A stretch of DNA of 64,000 nucleotides from an uncultured virus (IMG/VR IMGVR_UViG_3300032288_000917) (taxonomy: Duplodnaviria; Heunggongvirae; Uroviricota; Caudoviricetes). This document shows, one piece after another, positions 10 through 41,600 of the stretch. The notes under the pieces were generated by a model. The model saw nothing but the letters and a program-made list of their open reading frames with translations, searched no databases and was not told the DNA's origin. A program made the translations under genes and the position numbers. The stretch lies in IMG/VR virus record IMGVR_UViG_3300032288_000917. One strand, written 5' to 3'. Position 1 is the first letter of the stretch, and each line of letters opens with the position of its first letter.

Positions 10-207
10 ATGGACAAAGTAATAACATTAACATCAGATGAATATTATGCATTAATATCATACTTTGATGAAACTACAATAAACATCTCAAGTATGATAA
101 AGAAAAAAGGTTTAAAGACTACAAGAGACTTTGAATCTGTAATACAAAAGCTTTATAAAACAGATGCAAGTCGAGAAAATCAGGCGCAAGACATTCATTA
201 TACGTGA
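10..207 (+). CDS. small hypothetical protein (65 aa)
   Basis: ATG-started ORF on the coding strand of the block, overlapping the start of the next gene; no motif recognised. Confidence 0.5.
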   Translation: MDKVITLTSDEYYALISYFDETTINISSMIKKKGLKTTRDFESVIQKLYKTDASRENQAQDIHYT

Positions 208-21800: not shown

Positions 21801-24800
21801 TACAAGAAGGTCTACAAACTTATCGTTAGTGTAGTATTGTAAGAACTGATCAAACTCAGAGTCTTCTGTATTCCCATACACCATAAACTTAGGTTTACCA
21901 TTTACATATTTGACGTAATGGTCAGGCCTATGAATATAGAATGAGTCAATATCAAAGTCAGATCCTGTAAGCTTTACAATCTCATGAGGAAACACTGCAT
22001 TAGAACCAGTAAAGTTAGGCAGGATGTCTACAAGCTTTAAGCTCATTGCAGAGTGCTTATCTTGAGAAGGAATTCTCAATCCAAACATATATGCAATCTC
22101 TTCAGGTATAATATCACCAGCTTTAAGTCCAAACTGTTCTGCAAAGTGTGCAGACATTACAAACTCAGAGTACTTACCTATCTCTTTACCATTCTTATCA
22201 AGCCTTGGTTTGTTGTAAGCTAAGTCACGAGTCTTTAATCTACCAGCTTTATAATCAGCCATGTATTTCTCAGGGTTCTCGTCAAACATAGCTTTGTTGA
22301 CAATAACCTCTGTACCATCAGCTTTTTCATAAAACATAATCTGGTGTCCAAAGCCAGACTGTAAAGTAGTTTTATAGCCAGGAATCTTCTGACTGAATAC
22401 CTTATTGAAGTGTGCATTGTACATAGCCTCAAACTTTGCAGTAGTATGAGGCATATTTGCAAAGTCAAACACAGGGACACCACTTGAATCTACCTTAAAG
22501 AAGTCTAGTAACTGTCCAGTAGCTCCTGTTTTGATAAGACTTTCACGCATTATCTTAGCAAGGCGACCCATCTTAGGATTAGTCTTACCTTCTTGTAATG
22601 CAAAGATTATAGATTTAGCTGGGATGTAGCTACGAGTTACCTTCTGAGCTTGTGCAGAATCATATAAATCAAGCAGGTCTCCTACAGTCTTGATGTTATC
22701 ATAAAAAGGGTACTCTATCTTTTGAGCCCTGTCTTGTTCTACCTCAATGATATTTTGCATCTGGGTAGGATTACTAATCTGATCTTTATTTGATGGGTTC
22801 TCTTGTTGTAACCTACCAAACAAATTACTGATGCTACCTACTTGTCTTGTAGGATCAGGGACACTAAACATATCATTAGCATCCATTTCTACTACATTCT
22901 CAGTAAGCATCTTAGATGCAGAGGGAGGCATTAACAAGTCTATACCATGCTGCTCCATTTGTTGCAACATGTTAAACTTAACTTCCATTCCAGGACGTGC
23001 TACTCTTTCACCATTTATCTCAACAGATACTTCTTCTCTGCTAAGAGTTTGTACAGACAGTTTAAAGAACCTAACTCCATCATGGTATACTAACTTCATA
23101 GAGTTAGCCATGACATTCTCTTTCTTCAAGGTAGTCCAATCTTCAGGTGAGATAGGTTTACCTTCTATAATGTCATTATAGATTGCACGAGTCTTTTCAG
23201 TAAGTCTGCCTAAACCATACAAGTAATTCATAGCAGCTCTTGCAGAAATGTAACCTTGAGCATCTGCAATATCTACCTTACCTTTCTTGCGTATATCAGC
23301 AAGTTTCTTTTCTTTTTGTGCTTGTGTAAGAGTATCATCATTCTGAATAGAGTCAAGGACTTCTTTAAATTCAGCTTGATCCTCAGGGTTGTTCATATCT
23401 AAAACCCTGTTAGTAACAGTAAACTGTTTACTAGGATCTTCTATCTTACCACCTGCAGCTCTTTTACCTATGATTGCAAAGCGTGTTTCAGGCATCATTT
23501 CACTATACAATGAATCACCTGAAGCATTACGTGCTTTAGCACGCTTAAACCAATCAATAGGATTCTTAACTACTTGTGCAGCATCTCCTTTGATAAGTTG
23601 ATTATAACTTAATCTGTTTAGGTAGTTATTTAAAAAGACTTGAGCAATATTATCTCCAGCATATCCAGAAGTAAAAGGATTTTTCATCCTCTGGTCTGTC
23701 ATTGCTTTTAAAATCTTATTACGTGTTTCTGTAGTTTCAGAAAGCCACTTACCACCACTTATATAATCCCTACGTCCATACCTAGTATCTAGGAGTACGT
23801 TTATATAAATAGGTTTACCGTCTTTATACCCTTTCTTTACTACACCTAGCTTAGCAAGCTCATCAAGATGTGTATCAATTTGAGCTGTAAAGTACTTCTC
23901 AATCTGCTCTTTAAGTGCAGGAATATATTGATCAAACTCACCAGCTGAAGCTGCTTCTAACTCTTTAAGTAAATCAGAGTTTTCAAACTTAAGCAGGTTC
24001 TCAAAGTGCCAGAACTTAAAGCCTCTCAGCTTATTACGTTCACCTTCAACAGCACCCCAATTAAACCCTTCTATCTTATCTAAAGGATTAGAGCCTTGAC
24101 TCTTTACAACTTGAATCCTGTTAAACTCTCTTCTTACCTCTGCTACAATAGCATCTTTAAACTTATCAGTAATCTTACCTTGCTTGTCAATAGTATCTAC
24201 TACAGGTAAAGGTACCATATTAAGAGACTTTGAGTTCTCCATAATATCCAGAACAACAGGTCTTACTTCTACCTCATTGTTACCTACTATACCATCAAAT
24301 CTAGAGTCAAGGTAATGACTGTACTCAGCAAGTGCAAGTTCCCTAGCTTTATAATCTCCAAAGGTTGACCCTTCTTCTGACTCTTTGAAAGTATCAACTT
24401 CAAATTGTCCAAACTGGTTTATCTTCATGTACCTTACTCTTGCCCCATCTTCACGGAGCAGCTTAAGGTGAGCTTTGATTTTTTGGAAATTAGCGTTCTT
24501 AAGTAAGTAATGGTCTTTAAAATACTCGCTCTGGTAATCAAGAGGCAATAAGTCCATTCTATCCCTAGCTATAGCTAAGGTTATAATACTATCAGCAGTA
24601 GGCTTTTGTAAGCTGTAGATAGTCTTATTCTCAGCATTTAAGAATGAGTTAGGAGATAAAGTCTCATCAAATAACTCATTGTTCTTAGCAAGAACAAGGA
24701 TTCTACTTACCAATCCTACCTCTACTTCTTTCTCTTTACCATCCTTTTTAACCTGTTCAACATCACGTACAAAAGGATTCTTACCTGTAGAAATATGTTT

Positions 24801-27800
24801 TACAAGCTCATCAATTGTAGTTACTATATAAGGCTGGTCTTCTCTTAAACTATAACCAAAAGATTCTACATAGCTTTTTTGAATATCAGATATACCTGCG
24901 TAGTTAGGGTTATTTAGTACTAAGAACTTAAGGTAACCTTGTGATAAAGAAATACCTACAGATTTTAATGCTTCATCTAGATTAGTAACCCTGAACATAA
25001 CATCAGAGTTACTTAACTCTTTAGGAGTATTGATATTAATAGCATTACTAGCTTTAGTAAGTTTATCAACAATCTTAGCTTTAGCTGTAGCTATTTTCTC
25101 TTCAGGAGTTTTACCCCACTTTTGCCAGGCTTTTACATAAGCAGCATTCCAACTTTCAAACTGTTGTTGGTCAGCAGTCTTACGATTAGAAGAGTAAGAT
25201 CTTGCTATACCCAGATTAAAATCATACTCTGTAAATGTATGGTCATGTGAATGCAGATTAAACCCTTTAACCATTGCATGATATAAATCAAGGTTAGCAG
25301 GTTTAAGTTCTGACTCAGAGTAATTTCCATCTTTTAAGAATGACTCAAGAGGAAAGCCAATATCATTTAAAAACTTATCTATTACATACCTAGGCTCACT
25401 AGACACATTTCTGTAATGAATGAGCTTAGTCATTACTTCTTTGCTAGTCAAAGAATTCTGAGTAGCCTTGGCTATACCATTATATACACGTTTAGTGTCT
25501 ACTGCTATAGTCATAGTAACATCTTCAGGGAATACATCAGGTACTCCAAAGAAGTCATTAAGACTTGTAGTATATGTAGTAAGAGAAATATAAGCTCTAA
25601 GCTTCTTACTTAAGTTTTTAAAACCACCTAAGTTTTCTTGATTTAGATCCCTATTTCTTTCTTTAGATTCTGTATCACCTTTTTTAGATACCTCATCATT
25701 ACTTTCACCTTCATTCTCTTCTACTACCAAGTCTACATCAAAAGATTTAAGAGCAGCCTCTACTGCATTCTTAATCTCTGTTCTTGGAGACTTTGGAAAC
25801 CCAGGTTCATTTATATAAGACTCTGGGTTAAGAGCAAACTCAATAGAGTAAAATAAGTCTTTTGCTTTTTCATTAGTACTAGCATCAATATAATCAGATC
25901 TAGTATCTAAGTTAAAGTTATCATGGAATGCATTTATAGCTTCATCAATAAGCTTACTTGTAGGAACATTAGGCTTAAGCTTAGCAGCATTATATACATT
26001 ACTAATAACAGTACCAATAATTTGGTTACTTATATGCTCAGGTAAGAATGTAGGAATGACTACAGGATTACCTTTATCATCTAATACATTATTACCATTA
26101 ACATCTTTTTCAAAAGAAGATCCTGCAAATAATGATACTTGAGCAGGAAGGACAGTACCAGTAAACTGGTTACTAACCATCTGCTTGTTCTTAAAAGTAC
26201 CATTATCAATAGCTTCAAACAGACCATCAAATGCATCTGCTTGTTTACTCTTTACAAAAATATCTAAGACTTTGCTAAGCTTTTCCCAAAGAGTCTGAAG
26301 AATACCTGCTAAACCAGTCTTAGCTTTAGTCTCTTTAGCCATGCGATGAGCTTTATACTTATCTGCCATGTACTCTTCAAGCATAAGATTAAAAATCTCC
26401 TGCTCTGAAAACTTAGTACCTGGGTTCTTAGCATAGAACTCTTTGCTAAACTTAGCTGCCTCAGAAGTAATACTTATATTCTTCTTCTTAAGCTCATCAC
26501 GCATCTGCTGCTTTGCAGCATCTCTGTAAAATGCAATCTCCTGATCTGTAAGAAATGCACGGAATACTCCGTGAAAAGCCTCATGATATTCAGTACCTTC
26601 TGGAGAAAACCTAGATAATCTAATTAAATTATCCTTAAAGTCTCCGTATAGTACAGAGCCATTTGCTAATCTTTCTTCTAACGCATCAAGAACTGTAACA
26701 CCTATACTATCTCCAAATACACTACGTATATAAGCAAAAGCTTTAGTCAAGTCTCTAGCCCTAGCACGCACCTCTCCACTACTCTGAGCATCAGGATCTA
26801 GCTTAGTAGGATCAATCTTTACTTGTCCACGAGGATTAGCTTTCTTATTAGAAACAGGAGCTGCAGAAGGTTGAGTAGGTGTAGGTGCTTGTGTAGCAGG
26901 TTGAGCAGGAGTACTATAGTTTATTCTAAACGAAAGATTAGTCTTTACGTTAGGAGTAACAGTAGGATAAAAAGATTGTAACGCAGCATCTGTATTAAGA
27001 TCTGGTAGCTGTGTAGGAATTTGTGTTTTAAAATTCTTTACAGTAATAGCTGGTTCGTTCTTATCAGTACGAATAGCATCTACTGCAGGCTTACCTTGAA
27101 ACTGCTGTGGTCTTTTAGGATCTTGTAGACTTTCATTAAGCTTTGTAATAAACTCATTTGCAGTAGTTGTAGGAGTTATAGTTACATTAGCAAAGACAGA
27201 AGGTTCAGAACCAAACTTAAACTCTAATGTAAACTGCTTAAAGTCTTCACTAAAATATAAACCTACATCCCAACCACTTCTTAAAGAAAAGAATACTTCT
27301 GAATTAAGAAGAGTAGCCATCTCTTTAGGAGTAGCAGTCTTTTCTTCTTGGAAAGTTTTAAGAGTATTAAGAAGGTTGTCAATAGGATACTGAGAAGGCA
27401 CCAAAGGAACCCACTCATACTTTTTATTATCTCCTTTAATACTTACTGTACCATAAGGATGCTCTACCAAAGCTACATACCTTTGTAAAAGCCTAGTGTT
27501 ATGGATTTTACCCATAGCTTTTCTTTCAGCTAAAGCTTCAAGGGCAGCTTTATATTCTTCTTTAGTTTCTAAAGTAGCAGGGTCTACATGCATTTGCTGT
27601 AAACTCTTATCAGTATTAGTATCTACAATAAACAGATTATTATCAGCATCCCTATATACAGGCCTTTCAGAATCAAATTGCTCTAACATAGGAGCTTGAA
27701 GCATGTCAGGGGCAGCTTCAAAGAACCCTTTGTTTATTTGAGGGTTTATAAGCTGGATAAGTTCTTCAGTATTATATGTATTCTTACCTTGCAGTAATTG

Positions 27801-30800
27801 AGCATATACGTAATCAAAGAATTTCTTAGCTTCTTGATAAGCTTTTACAAACTCTTGGAAGTTAGCCTTAGTACCTTTACCCGTCTCTTCGTTTATCTCT
27901 ACACTAAAAAGAGTTTTCCACTCTTCGTAGCTCATAAGAGTAGGGTCTAATGGTATACCTTCTTCATTTACAAACTTACCATAGTAAGGTATATAAGCAA
28001 TGTCTTTTCCCTTATGCTGAATAGCCATAGTAAGAGGAGAACCACTAAATGCATATGGAGCATTCTCTACTTTTGTAATTTTTAAAGGGTCTGTATTAAG
28101 TCGTATATCAAGAGTAATCTCATCTAAAGCTGCAGGATCATTTATAAGAAGATCATCTAAAGCTTGTTGAGCTTTTAATCTAGCAGCTTTAACTTTTGCT
28201 TTACTCATCCCATCAAGGGGATCAGTAGAAGGAGTATCTACTTCACTATCTACAAACTGTTCACCTATAACAAAGGTATTTAGATACTCACGAATATCTT
28301 TAAAAGGACGCTTTACTTTCTTGTCTTCTTTTGTTTCAGCATCCTTAGCATTCTGACGTTTGATTAACTCTTGATGAATTGCTCTTACTTTATCAGAGCT
28401 TACAGTATAACCATTCTCTTCTGCCTTAGCTACAATAGCTTCTACATCTTGTGATGATTTAGCTTGAGCAAGCTCTTCTGCTAAAGTATTAGCAGTTACA
28501 TTTTCTCTTGAAGAAATTTCTTGTGCAACAGCTTGGTCAAGTTCTGCTAGTTCTTCTGCTCTATCATTAATAAGCATTTCAGATGCAATCTCTTCTCTAA
28601 AACCACGAAGATCTGCAATATCCATACTAGCCAAGTCCAGTTCTTTACCATTAAGATCTGTAACTATGTTCTTACGATTAACATCTTTTACAAAGACATC
28701 ATTAATTAACTCTGGAGGTAAGTTAGATTGTTTTTTTAAAGTACTTGCAGTTTGTTTGTTATTCTCTTCCTGCTCAGCATTTTCAAACATTGCTTGAAAA
28801 GCTTCATCTTCAGTCTGAAGAACTTCCAAAGCTTTTGCAGGATCCTGTAAAGCATTATAATACTTTACAAAGTCTCCTTTTCTTTCTGTAAGTTTATTTA
28901 AATCTGCAAACAGATTAACAAGTGCTGCACCTTCTACAGGACTCTCAGCCTCAAACTGTTTTAAAGCAGCTGTATAAGAATCTATTGCATTGCTCTTTAA
29001 CTCTTTGAGGTATTGCTCATATGTCTTTTCAAAAGGAACATTCTCAGGAGTAACAGTATCTGCAATAGTAAAGATGTTCTTATGCATCTGCAAAAGCTTA
29101 GAAGCCTTTGCATCTTTAAGATCAAGAATCTCTTGTTCTATATTCTTAGTACGTGCCTCTACATCTTTAATAGTAGAAGCTGCAAAGAAAAACCTATCTC
29201 TTATCTTTTGATTAGTAGTTCTTTGTTCAGGTGTACCACTAGAAATACCATAAAGAGTAGTAAGATTGTCATTAAGCTTCTGTAACTCTGCAGTCTTATT
29301 AACAATCTTATCAATATCTTCTGTAGTAGTACCAGGACCAAAATGCTTTTCTAACTCTGCAGGATCTATGTCTTTCATAGACTGCAAACGAGTTACAAAA
29401 TAATCTGTAGTACCTGCATCAATCTGAGCTTTGATATATCTATTTAATGCCTTGTCTGTTTCGTTCTTAGCACTAAATAAATCTCCTTTCTTGAGATACT
29501 CTTCTCCTTTATTTGCATCACGTACACTGCCTAAGTACTCTCCTATAAGCTTGTTACTTTGTGTAAAGTTAGGATCAGCATTAAGTGCATCTACAAGCTT
29601 CTTAGTATTCTCATTCTTAGCAAGCCTTTCTGCACGTACACCTTTTAATCCAAAAGGTCCACCCACAATACCTCCAATAAGAATAGATTCTAAACCTTCT
29701 CTGTCAGTAAGAGTACTTGAAATACCCTCTGCTGCACCTTCATAAAAAGCATCAGCCCAAGCATCTCTTGAAAACTGGTATTGATCTACAAACTCTCGTG
29801 ATGCTATGTTAGATGCATACTGTGCACCTTCTTGTAAAGACTCAGGTAAGAACCCTTCGACAAACTTTTTACCAAAGTTAAAATACGCAGCTCCTTTCTG
29901 AGCAGCTACTTTATCAAAGTATTCAGTAGTACCTTCTGCAAGAGTTCTAGTACCAATACTATTGTATTGTTTAATTGCAGCTTTCTTACCTGGATTGATA
30001 AACTTACCTAAAAGCAAAAGGTTTGTACCTCCTGTAATAGGCATGTTGATAAGGTAATTAGTATTACCTACATCAGTAGCTAATTGCTCAATCTGTTTAT
30101 CAGTAAGAGAAGCATACTGTGCATACTCAGGATTAAAGTCAGGATTAGAAGGATCTCCTAAAGCTCGTGCTTCATTATAAAAATCCAAAGCTTCTTTAAA
30201 ACTTTGGCGTGCTTCCATAGAAGATTCACCATGAGCAAGGACAGTACCTAAAGCCATCTCTTTAGTTAAATCCCATCTTCCTTTACTAGCTGCTGCTGCA
30301 CCTATACCTTCTGCAGTAGTACTTAATCTTCCTGCTGCAATAGTTTCATCTCCAATCTGAGCAAGCTGTGCAGCTTTACCCATTTTGAATAGACTGCTTA
30401 TACCATAACCTGCAGCTAAAGAACCTATAGTATAACCAGCACCTCCTAAGACTTTATCAAACCAAAAGTTTTGATACCCCATACTACCAAGAAGACTAGC
30501 GTTCTTCTCAGCCTCACTATAATAAAAAGGATTAGACTCTCGTACTGCCTCATTTATAGAGTCCATAGCTTGGCCAAACTCATTGTTCCAAACTTGATCA
30601 GCCTCTCCTGTAATAAGACCTTTTGATATCCCATAAACAAAACCTACTGTAGAATCAAGAGCACCTGTAAAAGCACTAATAGTCATATTAACTAGACCAT
30701 TACCAAGCTTATCTAAAGCAGTTTGTTCTTGAGCCCTTATTTCATTTAATTGTTGTAAGTTTTCAAATGTAAGGGGTTGCTTATCATATTGAGATTGTCC

Positions 30801-30917
30801 ATATCCTGTATATCCTACTTGTATAGGAGTTGAAATAGTAGGGCCAGTCTTTGCTACTACTATTTCAGGAACAGAAGGTGTATTATTAGGAAGTGTGGGA
30901 TTTAATGTATCAGCCAT
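18858..30917 (-). CDS. giant virion RNA polymerase (single-chain two-barrel, crAss-type) with zincin motif and large N-terminal extension
   Basis: catalytic loop TGSDFDIDS (DFDID at nt 21945-21959) preceded by LRIPSQ; KR, DAQGY and SASK motifs upstream; HEAFH zincin motif at nt 26571-26585; 4019 aa. Confidence 0.9.
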   Translation of the reverse strand: MADTLNPTLPNNTPSVPEIVVAKTGPTISTPIQVGYTGYGQSQYDKQPLTFENLQQLNEIRAQEQTALDKLGNGLVNMTISAFTGALDSTVGFVYGISKGLITGEADQVWNNEFGQAMDSINEAVRESNPFYYSEAEKNASLLGSMGYQNFWFDKVLGGAGYTIGSLAAGYGISSLFKMGKAAQLAQIGDETIAAGRLSTTAEGIGAAAASKGRWDLTKEMALGTVLAHGESSMEARQSFKEALDFYNEARALGDPSNPDFNPEYAQYASLTDKQIEQLATDVGNTNYLINMPITGGTNLLLLGKFINPGKKAAIKQYNSIGTRTLAEGTTEYFDKVAAQKGAAYFNFGKKFVEGFLPESLQEGAQYASNIASREFVDQYQFSRDAWADAFYEGAAEGISSTLTDREGLESILIGGIVGGPFGLKGVRAERLAKNENTKKLVDALNADPNFTQSNKLIGEYLGSVRDANKGEEYLKKGDLFSAKNETDKALNRYIKAQIDAGTTDYFVTRLQSMKDIDPAELEKHFGPGTTTEDIDKIVNKTAELQKLNDNLTTLYGISSGTPEQRTTNQKIRDRFFFAASTIKDVEARTKNIEQEILDLKDAKASKLLQMHKNIFTIADTVTPENVPFEKTYEQYLKELKSNAIDSYTAALKQFEAESPVEGAALVNLFADLNKLTERKGDFVKYYNALQDPAKALEVLQTEDEAFQAMFENAEQEENNKQTASTLKKQSNLPPELINDVFVKDVNRKNIVTDLNGKELDLASMDIADLRGFREEIASEMLINDRAEELAELDQAVAQEISSRENVTANTLAEELAQAKSSQDVEAIVAKAEENGYTVSSDKVRAIHQELIKRQNAKDAETKEDKKVKRPFKDIREYLNTFVIGEQFVDSEVDTPSTDPLDGMSKAKVKAARLKAQQALDDLLINDPAALDEITLDIRLNTDPLKITKVENAPYAFSGSPLTMAIQHKGKDIAYIPYYGKFVNEEGIPLDPTLMSYEEWKTLFSVEINEETGKGTKANFQEFVKAYQEAKKFFDYVYAQLLQGKNTYNTEELIQLINPQINKGFFEAAPDMLQAPMLEQFDSERPVYRDADNNLFIVDTNTDKSLQQMHVDPATLETKEEYKAALEALAERKAMGKIHNTRLLQRYVALVEHPYGTVSIKGDNKKYEWVPLVPSQYPIDNLLNTLKTFQEEKTATPKEMATLLNSEVFFSLRSGWDVGLYFSEDFKQFTLEFKFGSEPSVFANVTITPTTTANEFITKLNESLQDPKRPQQFQGKPAVDAIRTDKNEPAITVKNFKTQIPTQLPDLNTDAALQSFYPTVTPNVKTNLSFRINYSTPAQPATQAPTPTQPSAAPVSNKKANPRGQVKIDPTKLDPDAQSSGEVRARARDLTKAFAYIRSVFGDSIGVTVLDALEERLANGSVLYGDFKDNLIRLSRFSPEGTEYHEAFHGVFRAFLTDQEIAFYRDAAKQQMRDELKKKNISITSEAAKFSKEFYAKNPGTKFSEQEIFNLMLEEYMADKYKAHRMAKETKAKTGLAGILQTLWEKLSKVLDIFVKSKQADAFDGLFEAIDNGTFKNKQMVSNQFTGTVLPAQVSLFAGSSFEKDVNGNNVLDDKGNPVVIPTFLPEHISNQIIGTVISNVYNAAKLKPNVPTSKLIDEAINAFHDNFNLDTRSDYIDASTNEKAKDLFYSIEFALNPESYINEPGFPKSPRTEIKNAVEAALKSFDVDLVVEENEGESNDEVSKKGDTESKERNRDLNQENLGGFKNLSKKLRAYISLTTYTTSLNDFFGVPDVFPEDVTMTIAVDTKRVYNGIAKATQNSLTSKEVMTKLIHYRNVSSEPRYVIDKFLNDIGFPLESFLKDGNYSESELKPANLDLYHAMVKGFNLHSHDHTFTEYDFNLGIARSYSSNRKTADQQQFESWNAAYVKAWQKWGKTPEEKIATAKAKIVDKLTKASNAININTPKELSNSDVMFRVTNLDEALKSVGISLSQGYLKFLVLNNPNYAGISDIQKSYVESFGYSLREDQPYIVTTIDELVKHISTGKNPFVRDVEQVKKDGKEKEVEVGLVSRILVLAKNNELFDETLSPNSFLNAENKTIYSLQKPTADSIITLAIARDRMDLLPLDYQSEYFKDHYLLKNANFQKIKAHLKLLREDGARVRYMKINQFGQFEVDTFKESEEGSTFGDYKARELALAEYSHYLDSRFDGIVGNNEVEVRPVVLDIMENSKSLNMVPLPVVDTIDKQGKITDKFKDAIVAEVRREFNRIQVVKSQGSNPLDKIEGFNWGAVEGERNKLRGFKFWHFENLLKFENSDLLKELEAASAGEFDQYIPALKEQIEKYFTAQIDTHLDELAKLGVVKKGYKDGKPIYINVLLDTRYGRRDYISGGKWLSETTETRNKILKAMTDQRMKNPFTSGYAGDNIAQVFLNNYLNRLSYNQLIKGDAAQVVKNPIDWFKRAKARNASGDSLYSEMMPETRFAIIGKRAAGGKIEDPSKQFTVTNRVLDMNNPEDQAEFKEVLDSIQNDDTLTQAQKEKKLADIRKKGKVDIADAQGYISARAAMNYLYGLGRLTEKTRAIYNDIIEGKPISPEDWTTLKKENVMANSMKLVYHDGVRFFKLSVQTLSREEVSVEINGERVARPGMEVKFNMLQQMEQHGIDLLMPPSASKMLTENVVEMDANDMFSVPDPTRQVGSISNLFGRLQQENPSNKDQISNPTQMQNIIEVEQDRAQKIEYPFYDNIKTVGDLLDLYDSAQAQKVTRSYIPAKSIIFALQEGKTNPKMGRLAKIMRESLIKTGATGQLLDFFKVDSSGVPVFDFANMPHTTAKFEAMYNAHFNKVFSQKIPGYKTTLQSGFGHQIMFYEKADGTEVIVNKAMFDENPEKYMADYKAGRLKTRDLAYNKPRLDKNGKEIGKYSEFVMSAHFAEQFGLKAGDIIPEEIAYMFGLRIPSQDKHSAMSLKLVDILPNFTGSNAVFPHEIVKLTGSDFDIDSFYIHRPDHYVKYVNGKPKFMVYGNTEDSEFDQFLQYYTNDKFVDLLVKEYITEDIEKNGANTKELELKQILRNIIEELSLGEEMIVNKEELINEKAAIKQKLRDLNKQLVLRALKELGLPSNAAEYAQQTKEKGELNPGTLNNTILNAKIVLHSNPAVRKITSTPATIDEVETILDEIAKAKGFESYDEMDVKHDVSTLTALMQALDSNRAGQESIGAAVNATQIFGRLREFNIKIGELFLENLPKINGFTSEGYTSYQTQDGKRVMDILSTLTSAMTDNPKYGFVNKLGLSIDALSNVSNLVGLGYSLRDALYLINQDYVKKYTQFVANKRNKIRPLGEKYINTSKYYNSLLEDIKKKIKEIAPNATVDLDSNEFTTEELLNALKERAADDKQAQLEYLVANYKALTMYSGLEPITKTFSKIGSVIKITKGTGSTFEEEEIIIETLKQLGGKLEKVNGSWQIVKAKENKIMPNILKIFREHKLTKANLEVLADKRANTGKIAISQTPALRKMTNAGWRNIERVLGDVATKKNAIKKAALAFTVLRAYSIQQKSTVLNTDNISRLLYKLEDSQAMLLDEYKELSEKYPEFVGQSPALYSLGFRPQTSNGFMGINYNSTKGNVEFETRLTNDLENLYAAEHTREFVIKLFNYLVAKDALQFKNNSFINIMPAAMFKAYSRASKGVLELLNKEATEQEYKEMFGKSLEELTDEFVELSVRDAANYSNLLFYKEGAFKPEMPVTKNEDGSITFDMFKGWQAGYTATEISAIQEESVDPETGEVKSWEEVKKSLQGKVQEENLAKFISNLTNLNEMFALTTEVVGGKSYTRIKFLDGFRMKDSKGVYVLKSVEVSKKTKEGVEFTEKTREADGSKVGIRATYVLKETLGDKYNKVVPYGIGLEEAEKVAQSKLPKKEKTQDINGESEPLMEQANNPLDQISTTKAQPVKKEAPVSSGNPLDLLSANKKAAAADAGYAQDANTLPAVDEMRKAVRDAYIQEGMPLMDAMSKVKLMTKEELVQEFIKKCNTGA

Positions 30918-32973: not shown

Positions 32974-35826
32974 TTATCTATTTTGATTTTCAGGGTATGC
33001 CATTCTCAAAGCATCCATCATCTGCTTATTCTGCCAGAGTTGCCCAGAAGCTTGACCAATATTACCAATACCTGCTCCAATCATTTCAGCTTTCTTTTCT
33101 CTAGCCTGCTGTGCAAGATAATCACGATTCATACGCATCTGCATGTTAGACTGTTGAATAGTTTTATTAAGTTGGTTTATCTTAGCACGGCCTGCTTTAT
33201 TTCTATTCTCAAGAGCTTCTTCATACGCAGCTAAGTTTTGTTGATATGCATTAGTACCAGATTGTAAAGCAGCTAAAGCATTAGAGCCTCCAATCTGACG
33301 TGCATTATATTTATTAGCTGCATAAGCACCAAACATATCTCTACGTCCAGCTTCTCCAGTTAAATCTTCCCACTTTAAATCAGCAGGAGTTTCGTAACTA
33401 CCAGGCTTCCAAGCTTTCTCAAAGATACCACGACCTAAGTTATAAGCAGCAGGTAAGAATTGACCAGCCATTAAAAGGTTGTCCATTCTATTCTGTCTTC
33501 TAGCAGCTCTTTGCTCAGGAGTAAGTTGTGCATCAGTATCTCCAAACAACTCATCACCTGTGTACTCTCTTTGAGTACCCATTGCTGGTACTTGTTGTTC
33601 TGCACCAGGAGGAGTTGTTTCATACATTCTTTCTGCGCCTCCTACATTACCTAAATCAAAGTTATCTTGCATAAACCTTGGAGTAGCTAAAGAAGAAGCT
33701 AAGCCTGTAACTTGCTCATCAGATATACCTCTCATAGGAGCCATAGTCATAGTTTCAGCAGGAGTACGCATAGCTGCAGGTGCAGGTCTAGCAGTAACAG
33801 GTCTAGCAGGTCTAGCAGTTCTACCAGCTGTAGCTCCAGTATTTGTAGGAGCTGTGTAAGTAGGACGACTTGGAGCAGTATATCTACCTGCTGAAGTAGC
33901 ATTAGAAGGTGTAGGCTGAGTAGCAGGTCTAGAAGAACCTCTTTGTAAGAAAGGACTAGGTTGTATATTTCTTGTTATATTTTGAAAGAAAGGAGAAGGC
34001 TGAACACCTCTCATAATATCTTGTACACTTCTACTACCTGTTGTTCCAGGATTAGGAGTATAGTTAGGACCTGTACGATAAAAATCATTAGTACCTACAA
34101 AGTTAGCTACATTTTGTGCTAAGCCAGGACTCATAGTAACATTACTATTGTATGGTCTAGCAGCAGGTGCACTAGCAGCAGGTGCAGCAGTTGTATTACC
34201 TGGTCCAAATAAGTTTGCTAAGAAAGGACTCATAGGAGCATTTTGCATAGCTCTAGTTACTGCTCCATTTTGATACATAGGAACCATACCACCTCTAGCA
34301 TACATACGTTGAACTGCTCCACCATACTTTGCAGTAAACTTATCATATGCAGTCATAGCAGCTTGTTCTTCTGCTGCTTCTTTTTTCTGTCTATCAAAGG
34401 CAATATTATTTCTAATAGTATCTGCATAAAGCTTATCGTGATTCTTCATAGCTTTCTTATACTTATCTGCCATACGTTTAGTAATAACAAACATTCCTTC
34501 TTGTGCAGGTACTGTACCTCTTTCATCAATACCTTCTTCAGGATGAGGCACCATACCTCCTCCTTTATATTCAGTAACTATCTTACCATTTTTATCAGTA
34601 AGAAGCTCGCCTTTTTCTACATTAATCTGAGTAGGTTGACCAGTCATTCCACTCATAGCAAAAGTAGGCATATTACCTGTATCTATCTGAAGAAGGTTAG
34701 GCCCATTTATTGCACCTCCCATAGCCATACCCATGTTAGAATGATTCTGCATGCTTATTACATGAGATAAATCTCCTATTTTAGTAGTACCTCCCATACC
34801 ATAAGCATCTACCATACCGCCATACTCTTTCTTCTCAGCAGCACGAATCTTTCTTTCTTGCTTCAGCATTTCCTTAGTTGGCTTCTTTCCACTTCCTTTG
34901 TTAGCACGAATATTATCCCAAAGGCCACGCTTAGAGTAAGAACCATCTTTACGCTTAATCATACCTCCACGACCATAGTCTTCCATCATTGCATATCCAC
35001 CCATCTCATACATATCAGGAGTAGGCATACCCATAAGTTGATATACATCTACTACACCACCTTCTGCATAATGCTGTGCTTTGTATGAATTAATCTCATC
35101 TTGAGAAGCACCTGAAGCTTTCATTCTAGCTTCAAGTAAATCTACAGGAAGTTGTCCCCCATCTCCATATGAAGCAACCATTCCTCCATCTTCCCAAGTA
35201 GCTCTTGCGTAAGCACGGAAGTAAGGGTTATTCTTTAAGTTTTTAGCATGTCTTGCATAAAAAGCTTTCTTGCCATTTTTAGACTTACCTCTTTCTCCCA
35301 TGTTAGGGTCACCGAAGTATTTCTTTGTACCGTCAGGTCCAGTTACTACATGAGTCTTACCCTTACGGTCATTTGAGCGTCTTACTGTATAACCACCCTT
35401 GCCATACATTTCAACTTCTCCTCCCTGCTCATAACTATCAATATAATCTTGTGCTTCAGCAGGACTCATGTGAGACTCAAGTCTAGAGCGTAAAATACTT
35501 TCAGGAAGTTTACCACCCTCAGCATACATATCTACCATACCACCTTCTTCTTTCTTACGGGCTTTGGCCATCTTACGAAAAGTCTTGGCTAAAGCATAAC
35601 GCTTAGTACCAGGACGACAAGAAGGTCCACCAAAGTTAGAACCTGTACATACTCCTTCAGTACCACGTTTTTTAATAGAAGCAGTGGCTTTTTGTATCCA
35701 CCCACCTTTCTTATATTCATCTACCATGCCTCCCATAGCCATTTCAAATGCTTCTTGAGTAGGATATTGTTGATAGAACTCTTGTTCAGAGAGTCCAGTC
35801 ATTTCAAGTATTTCTTGTTTAGTCAT
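32974..35826 (-). CDS. modular cargo protein with about 17 xxxGG linker motifs, a Pro/Ala/Thr-rich region and a coiled-coil C-terminus
   Basis: 950 aa; repeated MAMGG/YKKGG/YAEGG-type motifs in residues 29-520; located between the muzzle and RNAP genes. Confidence 0.7.
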   Translation of the reverse strand: MTKQEILEMTGLSEQEFYQQYPTQEAFEMAMGGMVDEYKKGGWIQKATASIKKRGTEGVCTGSNFGGPSCRPGTKRYALAKTFRKMAKARKKEEGGMVDMYAEGGKLPESILRSRLESHMSPAEAQDYIDSYEQGGEVEMYGKGGYTVRRSNDRKGKTHVVTGPDGTKKYFGDPNMGERGKSKNGKKAFYARHAKNLKNNPYFRAYARATWEDGGMVASYGDGGQLPVDLLEARMKASGASQDEINSYKAQHYAEGGVVDVYQLMGMPTPDMYEMGGYAMMEDYGRGGMIKRKDGSYSKRGLWDNIRANKGSGKKPTKEMLKQERKIRAAEKKEYGGMVDAYGMGGTTKIGDLSHVISMQNHSNMGMAMGGAINGPNLLQIDTGNMPTFAMSGMTGQPTQINVEKGELLTDKNGKIVTEYKGGGMVPHPEEGIDERGTVPAQEGMFVITKRMADKYKKAMKNHDKLYADTIRNNIAFDRQKKEAAEEQAAMTAYDKFTAKYGGAVQRMYARGGMVPMYQNGAVTRAMQNAPMSPFLANLFGPGNTTAAPAASAPAARPYNSNVTMSPGLAQNVANFVGTNDFYRTGPNYTPNPGTTGSRSVQDIMRGVQPSPFFQNITRNIQPSPFLQRGSSRPATQPTPSNATSAGRYTAPSRPTYTAPTNTGATAGRTARPARPVTARPAPAAMRTPAETMTMAPMRGISDEQVTGLASSLATPRFMQDNFDLGNVGGAERMYETTPPGAEQQVPAMGTQREYTGDELFGDTDAQLTPEQRAARRQNRMDNLLMAGQFLPAAYNLGRGIFEKAWKPGSYETPADLKWEDLTGEAGRRDMFGAYAANKYNARQIGGSNALAALQSGTNAYQQNLAAYEEALENRNKAGRAKINQLNKTIQQSNMQMRMNRDYLAQQAREKKAEMIGAGIGNIGQASGQLWQNKQMMDALRMAYPENQNR

Positions 35827-35830
35827 GTTA

Positions 35831-38656
35831 TTAAAGATTATCTAGCCAACCGCCAGAAGATTGTTTGTTATATTGTTTTACTCCTGTTCTAGGATAGTCA
35901 GGTATCCAGTTGTATATTGGACCACCATCTGCTTTTTTATAAACAGGCTTCCTATAACCCATTTTAAGCAATTGCTCTTCACTATATACAGGAGGTACTT
36001 GTGGAGTATTACTCCATTCACCTTTAGTATCCATGTATTGAGTAGGTAATGGATTACTTTCAGGTACATTTACTTTCTGAGGCATAGCTTCTATATTATC
36101 AGAAGGTAAGCCTCGCATTGGCATCTGTACCATCAGATGGTACAGATGTAGCATATTAGGTATGTCAGGATTAAAGATTACTTTTTGTTTAGGTTCTGCG
36201 TACTGAGGATAAATCACCCACCTAGAAGAATTGTTTCTTATTTGATGAGCATCATCTATAAAATATATAGGTCTAATTTTATTTTTTTGTTCGTATTTTT
36301 GGCCTAATTTTTTTACATGTTGTTCTAATTCAGGTACTGAAATTATATCCCAATTATATTTTTTAGCATCTTTAATAAGCTCTGGATCATAATACTTTTT
36401 AAATAAACTTGAACTATCATTATAAGCTTTTAATCTTTTTTCATACTCTGCACGATTAGAAGTAATGAATGGTAGTACATCTCCTCCATCTGCAAAAGTA
36501 ATTCCTCGTTGATTAGTAGGTCCTACATACATTCCTGCATCAGATGCTCCAGGATTAACAGCATAAGGTATACCTACTCTTTTTTTATATTTACTTGTAA
36601 TACGTCCACCATTTCTAGCAAACATCATATCTGTAGCTCCTACATTAATATCTCCTACTCCTCCTAGGTTAGCATTGGTAAGACCTCCTCCTGTGTTACT
36701 ACCAGGATTTACAAACATGCTACCAAGAGATCCTAATTGACCTATAGTACCAAGAGCTTTAGAATTAAATTCACTTCCTGCAGTACCAAGCAATTCTCCA
36801 GCTCCTCCTACAATCTGTTGAGGATTACCACTAGCTATACCTGCAACTAAGTTACCAGCACTAGAAGTAAGTTGTCCAGTTTTATTAGCCCACTTGTCCG
36901 CACCTCTTTGTTTCTCTTGACTAGTGCCTATACCTTTACTTATTTGTTGTAACTGTCCTTTACCCATTCCATAAGCTGGGCCTAAGAATGAAGTACCTAC
37001 TACATCTGCTGCTCCTCCAAGTATTCCTTCAGATACAGCAGCTGCATTAGCCATACCTTTATTAGCATAGTTAAAGTTAACAAAGTTATTACCTGTAACT
37101 TGTTCTAATGGAGCAGCAAGAGTATTTGCAAATAACTTTCCTATATCTCCTACAGTAGAACCTAAACCATAACTAGGTACATAACCACCATAAGCCATAC
37201 GTGTAGTATCAGGTGCATGTAATCTCATAGGTCCTTTGTAAGGATTGTATCCTTGAAGTACAGGAGGAGATGAAGGACTGTAAGGATCCGTAGGTCCTGT
37301 TATTTTAATCTCAGGATATGGTACTTGAGTACCAGGAGATTGTGCACGTTGAGGTGTTATCCTTTGAGTAGTAGTACGAGTAGGAGTACCAGCTACCCAA
37401 GTAGGTGTAGTTTGTTTAGTCCATACGGTAGCACCATGTGCATACGCAGGAATCTCAGGAGTAGCATCTACAATCTTACCATCAGGTAAAGTAGACTTAG
37501 GAGTACCCATCTGATAATTAGTCAAAGTCCTATCAGGATAATCAGGATAATAAGATGGAGTAGTAGGAGTAGGAATCCTTTGGTCTTCTATTGTACTTCC
37601 ATTAGCATACTTCTCTAGCCAACCGCCTTGCTTATTACGTGCACCTACTCTTGGATAGTTAGGTGGGATCCAGTTATATACTGGACCTCCATCTTTTTTC
37701 ATCCCTGTCTGATACCCAGCTTTAGTATATAAAAAATTCTTTAAGAATGGATCTGTAATAAGTTGATTATTAACAGAGACTTGTTCACCAGTAGCAGGAT
37801 CTCCAGCATAATGAATTAAAGAACCAGGAGTAGTCTGTTTGTAGTATTGTCTAAACCCATCATTATCAGCTATAGACGACTCAAAAGTATTTGCGTAATT
37901 ATTATTATCTTGAAAAGTCTTTTGAGTAGATACAGAACTTATTCCTGTATTATAAATAGGACCTCCATCTTCTTTAATAGATACATTAGGACTATATAAA
38001 TCCCAATACTTATCTTTTACTTCTGCATATTCTTTTTCAAACTTAGGATCTTTAGCTAATAAAATCTTATTAACATAGTCAGAAGTTTCTTCAGGTAACT
38101 CTTTTAACCATTCTAATTTATTAGAATAAATATCAATACCTTTTTGTTTAGCCTTATTTAAAGTATTAATTACGTTTGTAGGTCCATAGTTATAGGCTGC
38201 TAAAGCTTTAGCTACTTTAACAGTATCTGACTCATTACTAGAATGATTGATCCAGTTTCTTCCCATAAGATCCCCCATCATCCATTTTTGAAACTTTACT
38301 GAATTTTCGGGAATAGTTACATCAATATCTTCTTTAAATTTCTTTTTATATTCTGCTAATGCTGCAGGCATTGCTTGTGCCATACCTAAAGCACCTTTAG
38401 AAGATTTAGTTAATCCTTGTACAACTAAAGGATTAAACATACCAGTTTCTTTACCAGTTTGCCTGTGATATATTCTATTCATATCTATCTCTTCTCCAGC
38501 TTTAGGAGAAGTAGATTTTACAGGCAAAGTAGGAGGATTAGGATTTTGACTATACCACTCCTGCCAATTAGAATAGCCTGGGGGTAAATTTTTAGGTAAA
38601 AACAAAGGCCTATGTGGGGTAGGCGATACTTGAGTAAGTTTACTTTTCTTAGCCAT
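35831..38656 (-). CDS. cargo protein with soluble lytic transglycosylase (SLT) domain and xxxGG linkers
   Basis: KET catalytic Glu, SSKGALGMAQAMP, ALAAYNYG and ETSDYVNKI SLT motifs (about nt 38050-38480); Gly-rich hydrophobic middle region. Confidence 0.8.
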   Translation of the reverse strand: MAKKSKLTQVSPTPHRPLFLPKNLPPGYSNWQEWYSQNPNPPTLPVKSTSPKAGEEIDMNRIYHRQTGKETGMFNPLVVQGLTKSSKGALGMAQAMPAALAEYKKKFKEDIDVTIPENSVKFQKWMMGDLMGRNWINHSSNESDTVKVAKALAAYNYGPTNVINTLNKAKQKGIDIYSNKLEWLKELPEETSDYVNKILLAKDPKFEKEYAEVKDKYWDLYSPNVSIKEDGGPIYNTGISSVSTQKTFQDNNNYANTFESSIADNDGFRQYYKQTTPGSLIHYAGDPATGEQVSVNNQLITDPFLKNFLYTKAGYQTGMKKDGGPVYNWIPPNYPRVGARNKQGGWLEKYANGSTIEDQRIPTPTTPSYYPDYPDRTLTNYQMGTPKSTLPDGKIVDATPEIPAYAHGATVWTKQTTPTWVAGTPTRTTTQRITPQRAQSPGTQVPYPEIKITGPTDPYSPSSPPVLQGYNPYKGPMRLHAPDTTRMAYGGYVPSYGLGSTVGDIGKLFANTLAAPLEQVTGNNFVNFNYANKGMANAAAVSEGILGGAADVVGTSFLGPAYGMGKGQLQQISKGIGTSQEKQRGADKWANKTGQLTSSAGNLVAGIASGNPQQIVGGAGELLGTAGSEFNSKALGTIGQLGSLGSMFVNPGSNTGGGLTNANLGGVGDINVGATDMMFARNGGRITSKYKKRVGIPYAVNPGASDAGMYVGPTNQRGITFADGGDVLPFITSNRAEYEKRLKAYNDSSSLFKKYYDPELIKDAKKYNWDIISVPELEQHVKKLGQKYEQKNKIRPIYFIDDAHQIRNNSSRWVIYPQYAEPKQKVIFNPDIPNMLHLYHLMVQMPMRGLPSDNIEAMPQKVNVPESNPLPTQYMDTKGEWSNTPQVPPVYSEEQLLKMGYRKPVYKKADGGPIYNWIPDYPRTGVKQYNKQSSGGWLDNL

Positions 38657-41600
38657 TACCTTGAGTTAGCTGAGTAAATTGCTTTTGCAGTGTGCACTAC
38701 AAACTTATTATTAGGCGTATTATTATAACGCAGTTCTACTACAAACCATTTATCTTTCATACGTCTAGTAATACTAGGACGTACAGCAGCTAGGTTAGCA
38801 GGATCAAATATATTATTAGTTACATCTATTACTCTATCAGAAGGAACTTTGATATTCCAGATAGTCTTATGTCTTCTTGATAATATACTCAAAGGAATCC
38901 AGTCAGTGTTTTGGTAATTATCAAATACACGCATGTCTTCAAAGAAGTTATAATAATCTATTGAAGCAAAAGGATCGTAAAGATGTGGGTTATTACTAGG
39001 TCTAACTAAGTTCTGACTATAAGCTTCAGCTACTACTTCAAGATTAGTAAAAGTCTTTTCAAGAGTAGGATTGTTGTTTACTACAAAACTTACAGTAGAA
39101 TAATTGACTACTTGGCTATTATAAAACCTTCCATAGTCACCATAGTTATGTATAAAGATACTATCAAAGCTACTTCCAATAGGCAGGTAAGGTGAGAATA
39201 TATTTACCTTATCATTTATGTAGACTTTAGGATAGTGTGTATACTCTCCTACAAACCCATCAAACAGATCATTATATACCAGAGTTACATAGTTGTCTGG
39301 GTCATTAGGAAGAGTAGGATCATCAGGGTTTAAGAAAGTCATGAAGAACTCATTATGTCTGAAGTCATAAGTACTATGAACTCCATGAGGTCTCCATACT
39401 ACACCTTGAATAGGATCATCAACCATCCTATAAGGATTGTCTCTAGTCTGTAGAAAACCATTAGTCCTATTGTACAAGAAACCATTATAACCTTTTATAT
39501 CAGTTAAAGGCTCTAGTGCTCCAGGTTTATATCTATATAACTTTCTTGCAAGAGTATCAAACCATACCATACTATAGTCTGAAGCATACATACTGAACTG
39601 ATGCTTAGTACCAGTCTTAGTAGATATATAATCATACCTTTCAAGGATACCTGAGCTACCAAGAACCAAGTCAGCATTGCCTCCTTGATCTGTAATAAGC
39701 TTTTGCTCTGCTACTTGTAATACTCCAAACGCTCTGTCTTGAATAAAGTAAAGCTTATCTTGGAATACTACAAGATTATTTAAAGGACCATATGCTGACT
39801 CTACATCTAAGAAAGAGCTAGGCTTGAATATACTCCAAGACTCAGTAAGTTCTCCATCAATCTTTTTCTCAGAACGCCATACTCTACAATCAAAGTCTAT
39901 AGGAACTTGAATTAAAGCAGGCTTTGGGAAGTACCTGTATACACTCTTATCTGTATGATTAAATACAGGATCTACTTCAAAGTTTTCTTGTAAATCTATG
40001 TGAGGACCACTCCATCCAGCACCAGTAGCATCAGGACCACCTTGAGGCCCAATACCTGAGATATTAGGTACACAAGCTTCATCAGCAGGATTCCTATTAC
40101 TAGATGTTCTTCTATAATCTACTGCTACACTAGTCTCTACTGGGAATAAAGCAAAGTGAAGACCAAACTCTAATGTATTAGGATAGTAAACAGCTTTAGC
40201 TAAATCAGTAAACTGCATGACATGGTCAAGTACAGTTACTTTAGTGTCTCCTCCAAATACTCTTAATGAGACAGGGCTAACTCTATTACTAATATCAATG
40301 AGGTTATTACAAGCAATATACTCACTGTTACTCCTAGCAAAAAAAGTTTGTCCTCCGAACGGACTAGCAACATCTTGTCTATAGTTTGCAAAGTAAATGT
40401 TTCTAGGTGTGTTTCCTGCAGTAGCTGCCCAACCATCTTTAGTATTACGATAGTAAGCTTCTGTTCCAGGATTTACAAAGTTAAAGTTAGATTGATATGT
40501 GGTAACATCAAGTTGAATAAAAAGAGAGTTGTTACCATGTGAATAAATATCAGGTGCAAACACAGGACCCCCAATACCTGTATTATTATTACCGTCTATA
40601 TTATTACCATCACGAGGAGAACAATTCTTAAGAATCCTGTTACCTACTGTAACACCTGCAGGAACAGACGCACCAGTATTCCATACAGTATTAAATCCTT
40701 CGTTAGGCCAGTTATTATAAATCTGTGTAGCTCTGTAAACTCTATAAGGATTTTGAGTATTTACAGTATCCTTAATACTATAAGGTATTGTAGCAGATTC
40801 TTTAATAGTGTAATTCTTAGAAAGATACCCGTAGTAATTTTGATTACTTTGTTGTCTTGGGCTCATCCAAGGAGCAGTAGAAGTATTAAACCAAGAAGCT
40901 CTTAACCATCCTTGGTTCATAGGAAAGTTTAATCCTGTTGGAGGTATATGAGGTACAATATCCTCAAGCACTCCTAATACATCTAGTCTATCTGTAGTAG
41001 AGCTACCTTCAAAAGATTTAAAGAGGAACTCTGGGCTACGTAATGTAAAAGAGTCATTCCATATCTCATTAGCATCAGCATCCTCTATACTACTTACATT
41101 CCAGAGGTAAGGATTACATGTGTATACTACTCCTGTATCTCCATAAGGAGCAGGGATACCATCACTCTTCCAAGTGAATTGTAAAGCACCTTGACCTAAG
41201 ATATGTTTAAAATCATTCCTTAAAGGAGTCCTTACAATCATAGCTTTTTTATACTGAGCAGGTATGCCAGTAAAGTTTTTGATTGTAAACTTAATGCCTA
41301 AAGGTTTACCAGTTAATGTTTGAGTTGGAGCATCATAAGATACAATAGCAGAGCTAAACTCAGAACCAACTGCAGTGTAATTAACTGTACTTCTATTTGA
41401 AGCAGGGTAGTTAGAACCTGCACTATCACCAGGCATATAAATATGCGGCATACGTATATCTGCAATCCAGTTTACGTATGTGGGATTATCTAGTTCATCA
41501 AAGAAGACTATACCAAACCTATACATCTCGTCACGCCTGTAACCTACAAGCATGTCATAAATAAAAGGAGAGTTGTAATCTGTGTAACTTAAGTTCTCAT

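Follow-up and report, generated by a model that had tools for sequence, protein, structure and literature searches.

The stretch of DNA analyzed here (64,000 nucleotides from an uncultured virus of the class Caudoviricetes; IMG/VR record IMGVR_UViG_3300032288_000917; hereafter, the window) is part of a genome and carries on its minus strand the gene for a 950-amino-acid (aa) cargo-type protein (positions 32974 to 35826; whole open reading frame [ORF], including the stop codon). In gut and water, the Crassvirales rank among the most abundant phages, and the question that this locus addresses is how the cargo proteins inside their particles are constructed and delivered. An initial annotation had singled out positions 34261 to 35742 (i.e., residues 29 to 522 of the ORF) as a string of small basic and acidic modules bounded by paired Gly-Gly motifs. 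The construction rule that we see at the locus appears to be that small cassettes, each folding by itself and ending in a common Gly-Gly joint, are exchanged as units between phages.

Locus and gene neighborhood

Our scans took in the 47 ORFs of the window. Pfam matches to crAss-like phage markers were found for the Crassvirus major capsid protein (56886 to 58334), tail ring proteins 1, 2, and 3/4, and the muzzle protein. The muzzle gene (38656 to 44115, minus strand; PF25731 crAss_MUZ; E = 2e-134) served as the synteny anchor. Its 3' side is occupied, in order, by a 941-aa protein with an SLT transglycosylase domain (35831 to 38656, minus strand; PF01464 SLT; E = 3.6e-9; endolysin PHROGs), the 950-aa target, and ORFs of 681, 4019, and 1073 aa. 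The SLT-domain protein, which is the upstream neighbor of the target, thus takes the first cargo position, and the target is the second gene past the muzzle gene. In Bacteroides phage crAss001, gp45 and gp46 (cargo C1 and C2) are encoded past the muzzle gene with the RNA-polymerase-associated giant proteins next, and all of these are reported in virions in part of the text of PMC10172136. On the basis of this shared gene order, the target is a cargo protein by position and is probably carried in the particle of a crAss-like phage as a cargo (ejection) protein. The protein itself had no Pfam or PHROG match (at E ≤ 10, Pfam gave chance-level rows only), and tblastn and megablast searches of 50,697 phage records returned no match.

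Two motifs stand out in the 4019-aa ORF (18858 to 30917, minus strand): DFDID at residue 2987, the catalytic motif of the virion RNA polymerase of crAss phages, and HEAFH at residue 1445, which is of the HExxH type. The ORF resembles a fusion of giant polymerase-associated proteins, which crAss001 encodes in separate genes; it had no Pfam or PHROG match at the thresholds used, and is poor in Gly-Gly (9 sites versus 13.2 expected; one aromatic-x-x-GG). The SLT-domain protein has a repeat dialect of its own, consisting of three D-G-G-P-[IV]-Y-N stretches (W-I-P...Y-P-R-x-G comes after two of these) and two G-G-W-L motifs, one of which is at the extreme C terminus, and is without tandem pairs of the target type. 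A 285-aa protein in the replication-side gene block (164 to 1021, plus strand) gave a spore photoproduct lyase/radical SAM match (PF20903; E = 1.4e-21).

Joints and modules of the 950-aa protein

The first 520 residues of the target contain 19 overlapping Gly-Gly sites, while 9.4 are expected from composition (at least 19 in 8 of 10,000 shuffles). They lie at residues 32, 41, 66, 95, 104, 135, 144, 214, 223, 256, 276, 287, 336, 345, 370, 422/423, 502, and 512. Seven tandem GG-x-Y-x-x-GG pairs are present, a number that 0 of 10,000 shuffles reached (shuffle maximum, 5). No other ORF of the window has the paired motif, except for a single match in a glycine-rich protein that looks like chance. 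The joint consensus is [Y/M/F/W]-x-x-G-G, usually followed by [Y/M]-[I/V] and often by a second, nine-residue copy (M-V-D/E-x-Y-x-x-G-G). The final pair is conserved as KYGGA[IV]xRM[YFM]AxGG in most near-length homologues.

The whole target was modeled with AlphaFold2 using 40 aligned homologues (mean predicted local distance difference test score [pLDDT], 59; predicted template modeling score [pTM], 0.30). Stretches with a pLDDT of <50 cover residues 37 to 57, 92 to 106, 135 to 143, 215 to 225, 256 to 289, 335 to 395, 423 to 434, and 505 to 767, and each joint falls in one of them. All of the features that follow are on the minus strand. Joint pair 1 (aa 29 to 42, MAMGG-MVDE-YKKGG; 35701 to 35742) enters the first of these stretches at residue 37. 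Pairs 2 (aa 93 to 105; 35512 to 35550), 3 (aa 133 to 145; 35392 to 35430), 4 (aa 212 to 224; 35155 to 35193), and 6 (aa 334 to 346; 34789 to 34827) coincide with the stretches that start at residues 92, 135, 215, and 335, respectively, and pair 7 (aa 500 to 513, with Gly-Gly at 502 and 512; 34288 to 34329) drops below 50 from residue 505. Pair 5 is held within the X segment (aa 254 to 288; 34963 to 35067), which is rich in Met and Tyr, is predicted to be disordered (256 to 289), and is conserved in close relatives.

The modules between the joints are predicted to fold. The N module (aa 1 to 28; 35743 to 35826) is acidic with three short helices (pLDDT, 88 to 95 over residues 1 to 30) and is N-terminal in 51 of 120 homologues. 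It is followed by basic bead B1 (aa 43 to 92, with two Cys; 35551 to 35700), which forms two helices (76 to 85 over residues 60 to 90); the acidic two-helix bead A1 (aa 106 to 132; 35431 to 35511; about 87 over residues 110 to 133); and basic bead B2 (aa 146 to 211; 35194 to 35391), in which three strands precede three helices (74 to 95 over residues 145 to 214). The acidic two-helix bead A2 (aa 225 to 253; 35068 to 35154; 84 to 91 over residues 228 to 253) is related to A1, and basic bead B3 (aa 289 to 333; 34828 to 34962) is modeled at 59 to 79 over residues 300 to 334. M4 and M5 (aa 347 to 499; 34330 to 34788) comprise a disordered stretch and then a beta-plus-long-helix domain (89 to 96 over residues 400 to 500); the M5 domain (34330 to 34713) is present in 47 of 240 proteins. 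A disordered spacer rich in Pro, Ala, Thr, and Arg (aa 514 to 700, net charge +13; 33727 to 34287; pLDDT of about 30) leads to the C-terminal region (aa 701 to 950; 32977 to 33726), the long-helix domain of which (aa 791 to 945; pLDDT of 85 to 94 in the helices at 820 to 945) is present in 48 homologues. When B2 was modeled alone from 61 sequences, the same three strands and three helices were obtained, with disordered flanks.

Since the modules are predicted to be folded and the joints disordered, the architecture is that of beads on a string, as the initial annotation had proposed; the model did not show the Gly-Gly motifs as turns of one repeat fold. The same annotation had quoted seven tandem pairs, all of which are present as written, and had described alternating charge, which the net charges bear out (B1, +13; A1, −2; B2, +13; A2, −1; X, −5; B3, +11; joints, −2 to −4). 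It had also noted a resemblance between the acidic modules; profile hidden Markov models (HMMs) of A1 and A2 match the same segments in several homologues, and an A1-type module fills the A2 slot in one relative. Foldseek and VIA-align searches with the full model gave only common helical-hairpin matches to residues 813 to 902 and weak rows for uncharacterized crAss-like proteins, and the only match when PDB chains were searched by sequence was at chance level (E = 0.51).

Module orders and joint conservation in homologues

A large protein search identified 698 near-length homologues (E ≤ 0.001) among 7992 scored candidates, as well as 5377 shorter homologues when the query was limited to residues 29 to 345. 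BLAST coverage over 119 near-length homologues is highest for B2 (about 110) and B3 (about 104), lower for the C-terminal domain (about 29), and lowest for the Pro/Ala/Thr-rich middle (5 to 14). Profile HMMs made from the modules of the target were run over 120 proteins to record module orders and over 240 proteins to record flanks. The 120 proteins display 45 module orders, among which N-B3-B2 (23 proteins), B3-A1-B2 (20), B2-B3 (9), and B1-B3-B2 (5) recur; the order of the target is unique.

The joints are retained through this shuffling. Gly-Gly stands directly ahead of B2 in 171 of 175 full-length copies, and x-x-GG follows it in 175 of 175. Likewise, for A1, Gly-Gly comes directly before the bead in 83 of 84 copies and x-x-GG after it in 82 of 84. 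B3 (present in 180 of the 240 proteins) has a Gly-Gly 0 to 1 residue upstream in 167 of 176 copies; for B1 (present in 77 proteins), Gly-Gly is directly ahead in only 43 of 77. At the 3180 Gly-Gly sites of the 240 proteins, position −3 is Tyr (29%), Met (20%), Phe (8%), or Trp (6%), i.e., 63% together, while Tyr (18%) and Met (16%) lead at position +1 and Ile (18%) and Val (16%) at position +2. Gly-Gly pairs with spacers of five to nine residues number 587 (20 shuffles gave 90 on average and 105 at most), and the seven-residue spacers (n = 227) read M(44%)-V(55%)-D/E/P-x-Y(72%)-x-x.

The beads also occur in short proteins, encoded on contigs of 6 to 56 kb, that contain one to three beads and keep their Gly-Gly flanks. 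Examples are proteins of 126 aa (B2; 17-kb contig), 140 aa (A1 and B1; 6-kb contig), 191 aa (B3 and B2; 6-kb contig), 212 aa (B2 and B3; 17-kb contig), and 221 aa (B3 and B1; 11-kb contig). The modules thus behave as independent units, as had been suggested, in that they recur in other orders, in other numbers, and in stand-alone short proteins with the joints conserved. Several short bead proteins share a tail after the last G-G (G-G-[DN]-F-G-[FY]-[LI]-P-[ND]-F-F), which may be a terminal docking or sorting peptide.

Bead B2

We searched 1.84 billion cluster representatives (50% clustering) exhaustively by phmmer, using GG-B2-GG (72 aa) as the query, and matched 290 proteins at E ≤ 0.001, including 274 at E ≤ 1e-10. 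The best 150 of the 290 representatives share 62 to 94% identity with the query across practically its whole 72-residue length, both Gly-Gly included. B2 can stand anywhere in its host proteins, which range from 120 to 2409 aa. An alignment of 61 sequences has 34 invariant columns, including two His (His27 and His61 in alignment numbering), one Asp (Asp41), several Arg/Lys, and an R-K-G-K-T-H stretch. B2 is unusually conserved for a phage module, though its host proteins cluster below 50% identity, and this conservation hints at a precise ligand or a catalytic role.

Leader-peptide-binding domains and the SSV1 A100 scaffold were considered as relatives of B2; the structural matches (Z = 2.5 to 3.0) were too weak to use. 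Viral clusters of about 100 to 116 aa in the ESM Atlas (one with 1090 members) resemble B2 (template modeling score, 0.59 to 0.62), and some are labeled DUF5754. B2 gave no sequence match to DUF5754 (PF19058), leaving a structure-level lead only.

Cassette breakpoints

The first 560 residues of the target were aligned with five close relatives. Whole cassettes are present or absent while their flanks are more than 80% identical, with in-register breakpoints at the Y-x-x-GG joints. For example, one relative is missing precisely the segment that begins with the Y-E-Q-G-G joint, includes B2, and stops at the residue ahead of Y-G-D-G-G. One other relative lacks A1 and B2, one lacks B2 and A2, and one has about 200 extra residues between two joints. 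In a syntenic IMG/VR orthologue (855 aa), a different module fills the A1/B2 slot. Since the cassette-sized indels that separate close relatives have their breaks at the joints, these are crossover points for module shuffling, as the initial annotation had allowed.

At the DNA level, joint repeats share 61 to 79% identity over 24 to 49 nucleotides; the longest (46 to 49 nucleotides) are 71 to 76% identical, and there is one exact 14-mer. Conservation is much stronger in the joint peptide than in the DNA, and the joints are therefore probably also under selection as peptide.

Fate of the joints

Cleavage after G-G is shared by adenain, the African swine fever virus (ASFV) protease pS273R, ubiquitin-like proteases, and C39 peptidases, and the joints have been read as protease sites. 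On this account, the target is a processed polyprotein: a virion-borne or host protease cuts after G-G and frees the beads in the capsid or after ejection, the nine-residue spacers being discarded. We consider it unlikely, although several features would suit it. The joints lie in linkers that AlphaFold2 predicts to be exposed and disordered, the G-G is near-invariant at bead borders with adjacent positions conserved like a recognition site, the beads are also encoded as short separate ORFs, and the neighboring 4019-aa virion polyprotein bears an HExxH motif.

The adenain consensus is (M/I/L)-x-G-G at P4 to P1, and none of the 18 Gly-Gly sites of the target has Met, Ile, or Leu at P4; over the 240-protein family, P4 is mostly Ala (28%), Glu (14%), Lys (12%), and Gly (12%). 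P1' is often Tyr, Trp, or another bulky residue, and bulky new N termini are destabilizing under the bacterial N-end rule. By Pfam, the 47 ORFs of the window, itself part of a genome, yielded no cysteine, JAB-type, or other processing peptidase and no Gly-Gly-specific protease; a recognized processing peptidase was likewise found in none of 30 B2-bearing proteins. MPTase-PolyVal (PF18818) had no match in a near-identical record, a 54-kb fragment with an identical target gene. The one- to three-bead proteins keep their Gly-Gly flanks though they have nothing to be released from. A candidate virion-borne metallopeptidase is present in a cultured relative, Cellulophaga phage phi14:2, in which g070 (17807 to 19588), the first protein past the muzzle gene and found in virions by tandem mass spectrometry, has two H-E-x-x-H motifs and a few G-G joints; g069 of this phage has a few joints as well.

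Metallopeptidase domains have been proposed to process polyvalent proteins in part of the text of PMC5512222, and part of the text of Drobysheva et al. (bioRxiv 10.1101/2020.03.07.982082) proposes cleavage of fused crAss RNA polymerase polyproteins, which are expected to be cleaved. However, the 4019-aa fusion, for which cleavage is expected, has fewer Gly-Gly than its composition predicts and a single aromatic-x-x-GG, which argues against the joints as the general site of any virion protease. In crAss001 gp45, Gly-Gly sites at 427, 434, and 447 lie inside a continuously resolved compact domain (425 to 552), and only those three sites are shown uncut; one gp45 chain is modeled across the tail and capsid in the portion of PMC10172136 concerned. 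In summary, the initial annotation stood with regard to beads on a string, mobile modules, and crossover joints, while proteolytic cutting was not supported. It is doubtful that the joints are the sites of a virion-borne or host protease by which the cargo would be unzipped, on packaging or entry, into tiny effectors with B2 (66 residues) among them.

A second account, which we also judge improbable, is multivalent docking, in which the joints, as short linear motifs, would dock onto a repeated binding site in the procapsid, portal, or tail lumen (e.g., by strand addition), and more joints would give better packaging and retention. The hydrophobic pattern and the nine-residue spacer exceed the needs of a hinge, as would be expected of a docking motif, and within the window it is the cargo-position protein alone that has the paired motif. 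Additionally, the two particle-bound resolved segments of gp45 start 4 residues past one joint (at 214) and 2 residues ahead of another (at 425), but neither segment is itself a joint peptide. The portal gene falls beyond the window. The motif is absent from the giant polymerase protein and from the neighbors of 681 and 1073 aa, which are likely cargo (the first by its DFDID, all by position); thus, the joint cannot be a general packaging signal. That the joints are pure recombination scars without protein function, persisting as cassettes are copied with their flanks, accords with cassette indels that break at joints and with joints that repeat at the DNA level but is very improbable, since G-G is kept in 171 to 175 of 175 B2 copies from proteins clustered at <50% identity, in which neutral scars would have decayed, and joint DNA is so divergent over its 24 to 49 nucleotides that the peptide rather than the DNA is conserved.

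The remaining reading, which we favor and to which we would give about an even chance, is that the target is a virion cargo protein of the polyvalent type, the joints of which are uncut hinges or insulators that double as recombination seams. As a direct check on the fate of a jointed protein, the crAss001 virion gel was available in the form of matrix-assisted laser desorption ionization (MALDI) peak lists of 13 bands (Shkoporov et al. 2018, PMC6235969), which we reanalyzed by fingerprinting against 37 proteins with shuffled controls. No band of <15 kDa and none between 15 and 35 kDa had been excised. The fingerprinting recovered gp50/47, gp49, gp44, gp20, gp26, gp22, gp25, gp23, gp32, gp36, and gp29, with scores that reached z = 15 for gp49 (43 peaks), z = 16 for gp32 (32 peaks), and z = 10 to 14 for gp26, gp22, gp25, gp23, and gp36; the portal gp20 was recovered with 7 peaks (z = 3.8). 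The cargo protein gp46 was weak (4 peaks in band 6; z = 1.9). In the text of Shkoporov et al. 2018 (PMC6235969), gp45 and gp46 are absent from the detected proteins. The two highest bands (1 and 2; above the giant polymerase proteins) match gp34 (238 aa) and the muzzle gp44, which would suggest an SDS (sodium dodecyl sulfate)-resistant assembly.

Several points weigh against uncut hinges in a virion protein. With a mass of 91 kDa and up to 12 copies, gp45 might have been expected to show up alongside the portal, and yet it was found in 0 of the 13 bands (z ≤ 0.3) while the portal, of similar size and copy number, was found, with the reservation that mixtures suppress MALDI peptides and that the excised bands leave out the small size ranges given above; the absence of jointed gp45 as a band from the 2018 gel data might also be read in favor of processing. 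The bulky residues at positions −3, +1, and +2 and the nine-residue spacer are conserved beyond the needs of a plain hinge, and this conserved hydrophobic pattern suggests that the joints are read by a partner, whether a protease or a docking site. The virion location of the target comes from synteny only. Finally, B2 offers no functional anchor: its model has no solved-structure match (best Z, 3.2; no Foldseek match at E ≤ 0.001), B2 has no Pfam match, and ten short B2, B1, and B3 proteins are also without a Pfam match at E ≤ 10.

Proposed mechanism

The conserved N module and the C-terminal long-helix domain frame a variable chain of autonomous mini-domains (B1, A1, B2, A2, B3, and M5). Under the favored reading of a cargo protein with uncut joints, the target would be packed in the particle and ejected before or together with the DNA. 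Its N-terminal half would be a chain of self-folding cassettes of 3 to 8 kDa each, insulated from one another by uncut disordered joints, so that any order folds. The joints would also make the chain flexible enough to be packed and then to pass, one bead at a time, through the portal and tail. In part of their text, Bayfield et al. 2023 (PMC10172136) argue that larger cargo must partly unfold for this passage. At the DNA level, the same joints are the seams where cassettes are gained, lost, and swapped between phages.

On arrival, the basic beads would act most likely through a polyanion, such as DNA or the cell envelope. A polyanion is a likely ligand because the net charges of these beads are +11 to +13, and DNA condensation, as the initial annotation had it, would be an inference from charge alone. 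The sister proteins of the target carry cell-wall enzymes, which makes the envelope as open a target as DNA. Among 30 B2-bearing relatives, we found crAss_CARG1 (6 proteins), YkuD (3), CHAP (1), Amidase_2 with LysM (1), and ART-PolyVal (1), and bead-sharing proteins also carry a weak lysozyme match, DUF5872, DUF3597, and DUF7210.

Relation to known systems

The cargo protein gp45 of crAss001 (PF25725 crAss_CARG1; PMC10172136) is particle-borne and is encoded just past the muzzle gene, while the target is second, not first, past it. It contains 21 Gly-Gly (13.3 expected), with aromatic-x-x-GG or aromatic-GG joints at 209, 263, 332, 427, 562, and 821. A weak likeness links the C-terminal helices of the target to gp45 residues 622 to 750 (hhalign E = 0.006 over 111 columns; probability, 6%), six controls having given E values of 0.3 to 0.5 over at most 15 columns. 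The C-terminal domain is also weakly similar to residues 245 to 362 of phi14:2 g069 (hmmsearch E = 1e-4; BLASTP E = 0.012). The target lacks a Pfam-detectable crAss_CARG1 (E ≤ 10) and the glycine-zipper-like N-terminal stretch of gp45, and CARG1 was found in 3 of 20 and 6 of 30 of its bead-sharing relatives (two samples). The domain crAss_CARG1 is the portal-binding domain of gp45. M5 sits where gp45-like relatives carry the portal-binding CARG1. Comparisons of M5, as a possible hidden CARG1, with gp45 (30 columns) and with a CARG1 alignment (15 columns) gave an hhalign E of about 0.02 and did not support the likeness, and two collinear patches serve as a lead.

The gene position of the target, second past the muzzle gene, is that of gp46 in crAss001. 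The two proteins have no sequence likeness (hhalign E = 0.5 over 13 columns), and gp46 has one GGG site and no joints. In the part of PMC10172136 that was covered, neither joints nor cassettes are described, and the strings "cleav" and "proteoly" do not occur.

Polyvalent proteins, as described in part of the text of Iyer et al. 2017 (PMC5512222), are multidomain proteins delivered with the DNA that draw on a shared domain pool in many orders, and their proteolytic release has been proposed. The target shares one trait with them: unrelated domains from a pool that recur in many orders (45 among the 120 proteins). However, it is without the named polyvalent domains (MPTase, ART, lysozyme, ParB, etc.), and its units are much smaller (27 to 70 aa). 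The same part of PMC5512222 makes no mention of a Gly-Gly joint, with neither "linker" nor "glycine" occurring in it.

The likeness of the target to adenovirus and ASFV proteins lies in the presence of G-G at the borders of small basic units; it differs in the absence of the P4 consensus residue (0 of 18), and no clan CE protease was found in the window. In those viruses, the adenovirus core precursors and ASFV pp220 and pp62 are cut after G-G at the borders of small basic virion units. The ejection proteins of T7 (gp14 to gp16), P22 (gp7, gp16, and gp20), and N4 are internal, leave through the tail before the DNA by way of a narrow channel, and have long-helix domains. The target resembles them in its long-helix domain and differs from them in its shuffled mini-cassettes and joint peptide; we know of no shuffled mini-cassettes and no conserved joint peptide in the T7, P22, or N4 proteins. 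As far as our searches go, crassvirus cargo proteins and polyvalent proteins are known, and a cassette grammar with a conserved Gly-Gly joint was not found in the literature.

If the construction rule holds, it explains why such genes resist annotation and allows them to be parsed into units, with B2, B1, and B3 first. It also leads to a precise question, namely, whether the joints are cut, docked, or hinges, which is answerable in cultured phages such as crAss001. If cutting were true, the cargo proteins of crAss-like phages would be a cassette-programmable polyprotein delivery system in phages.

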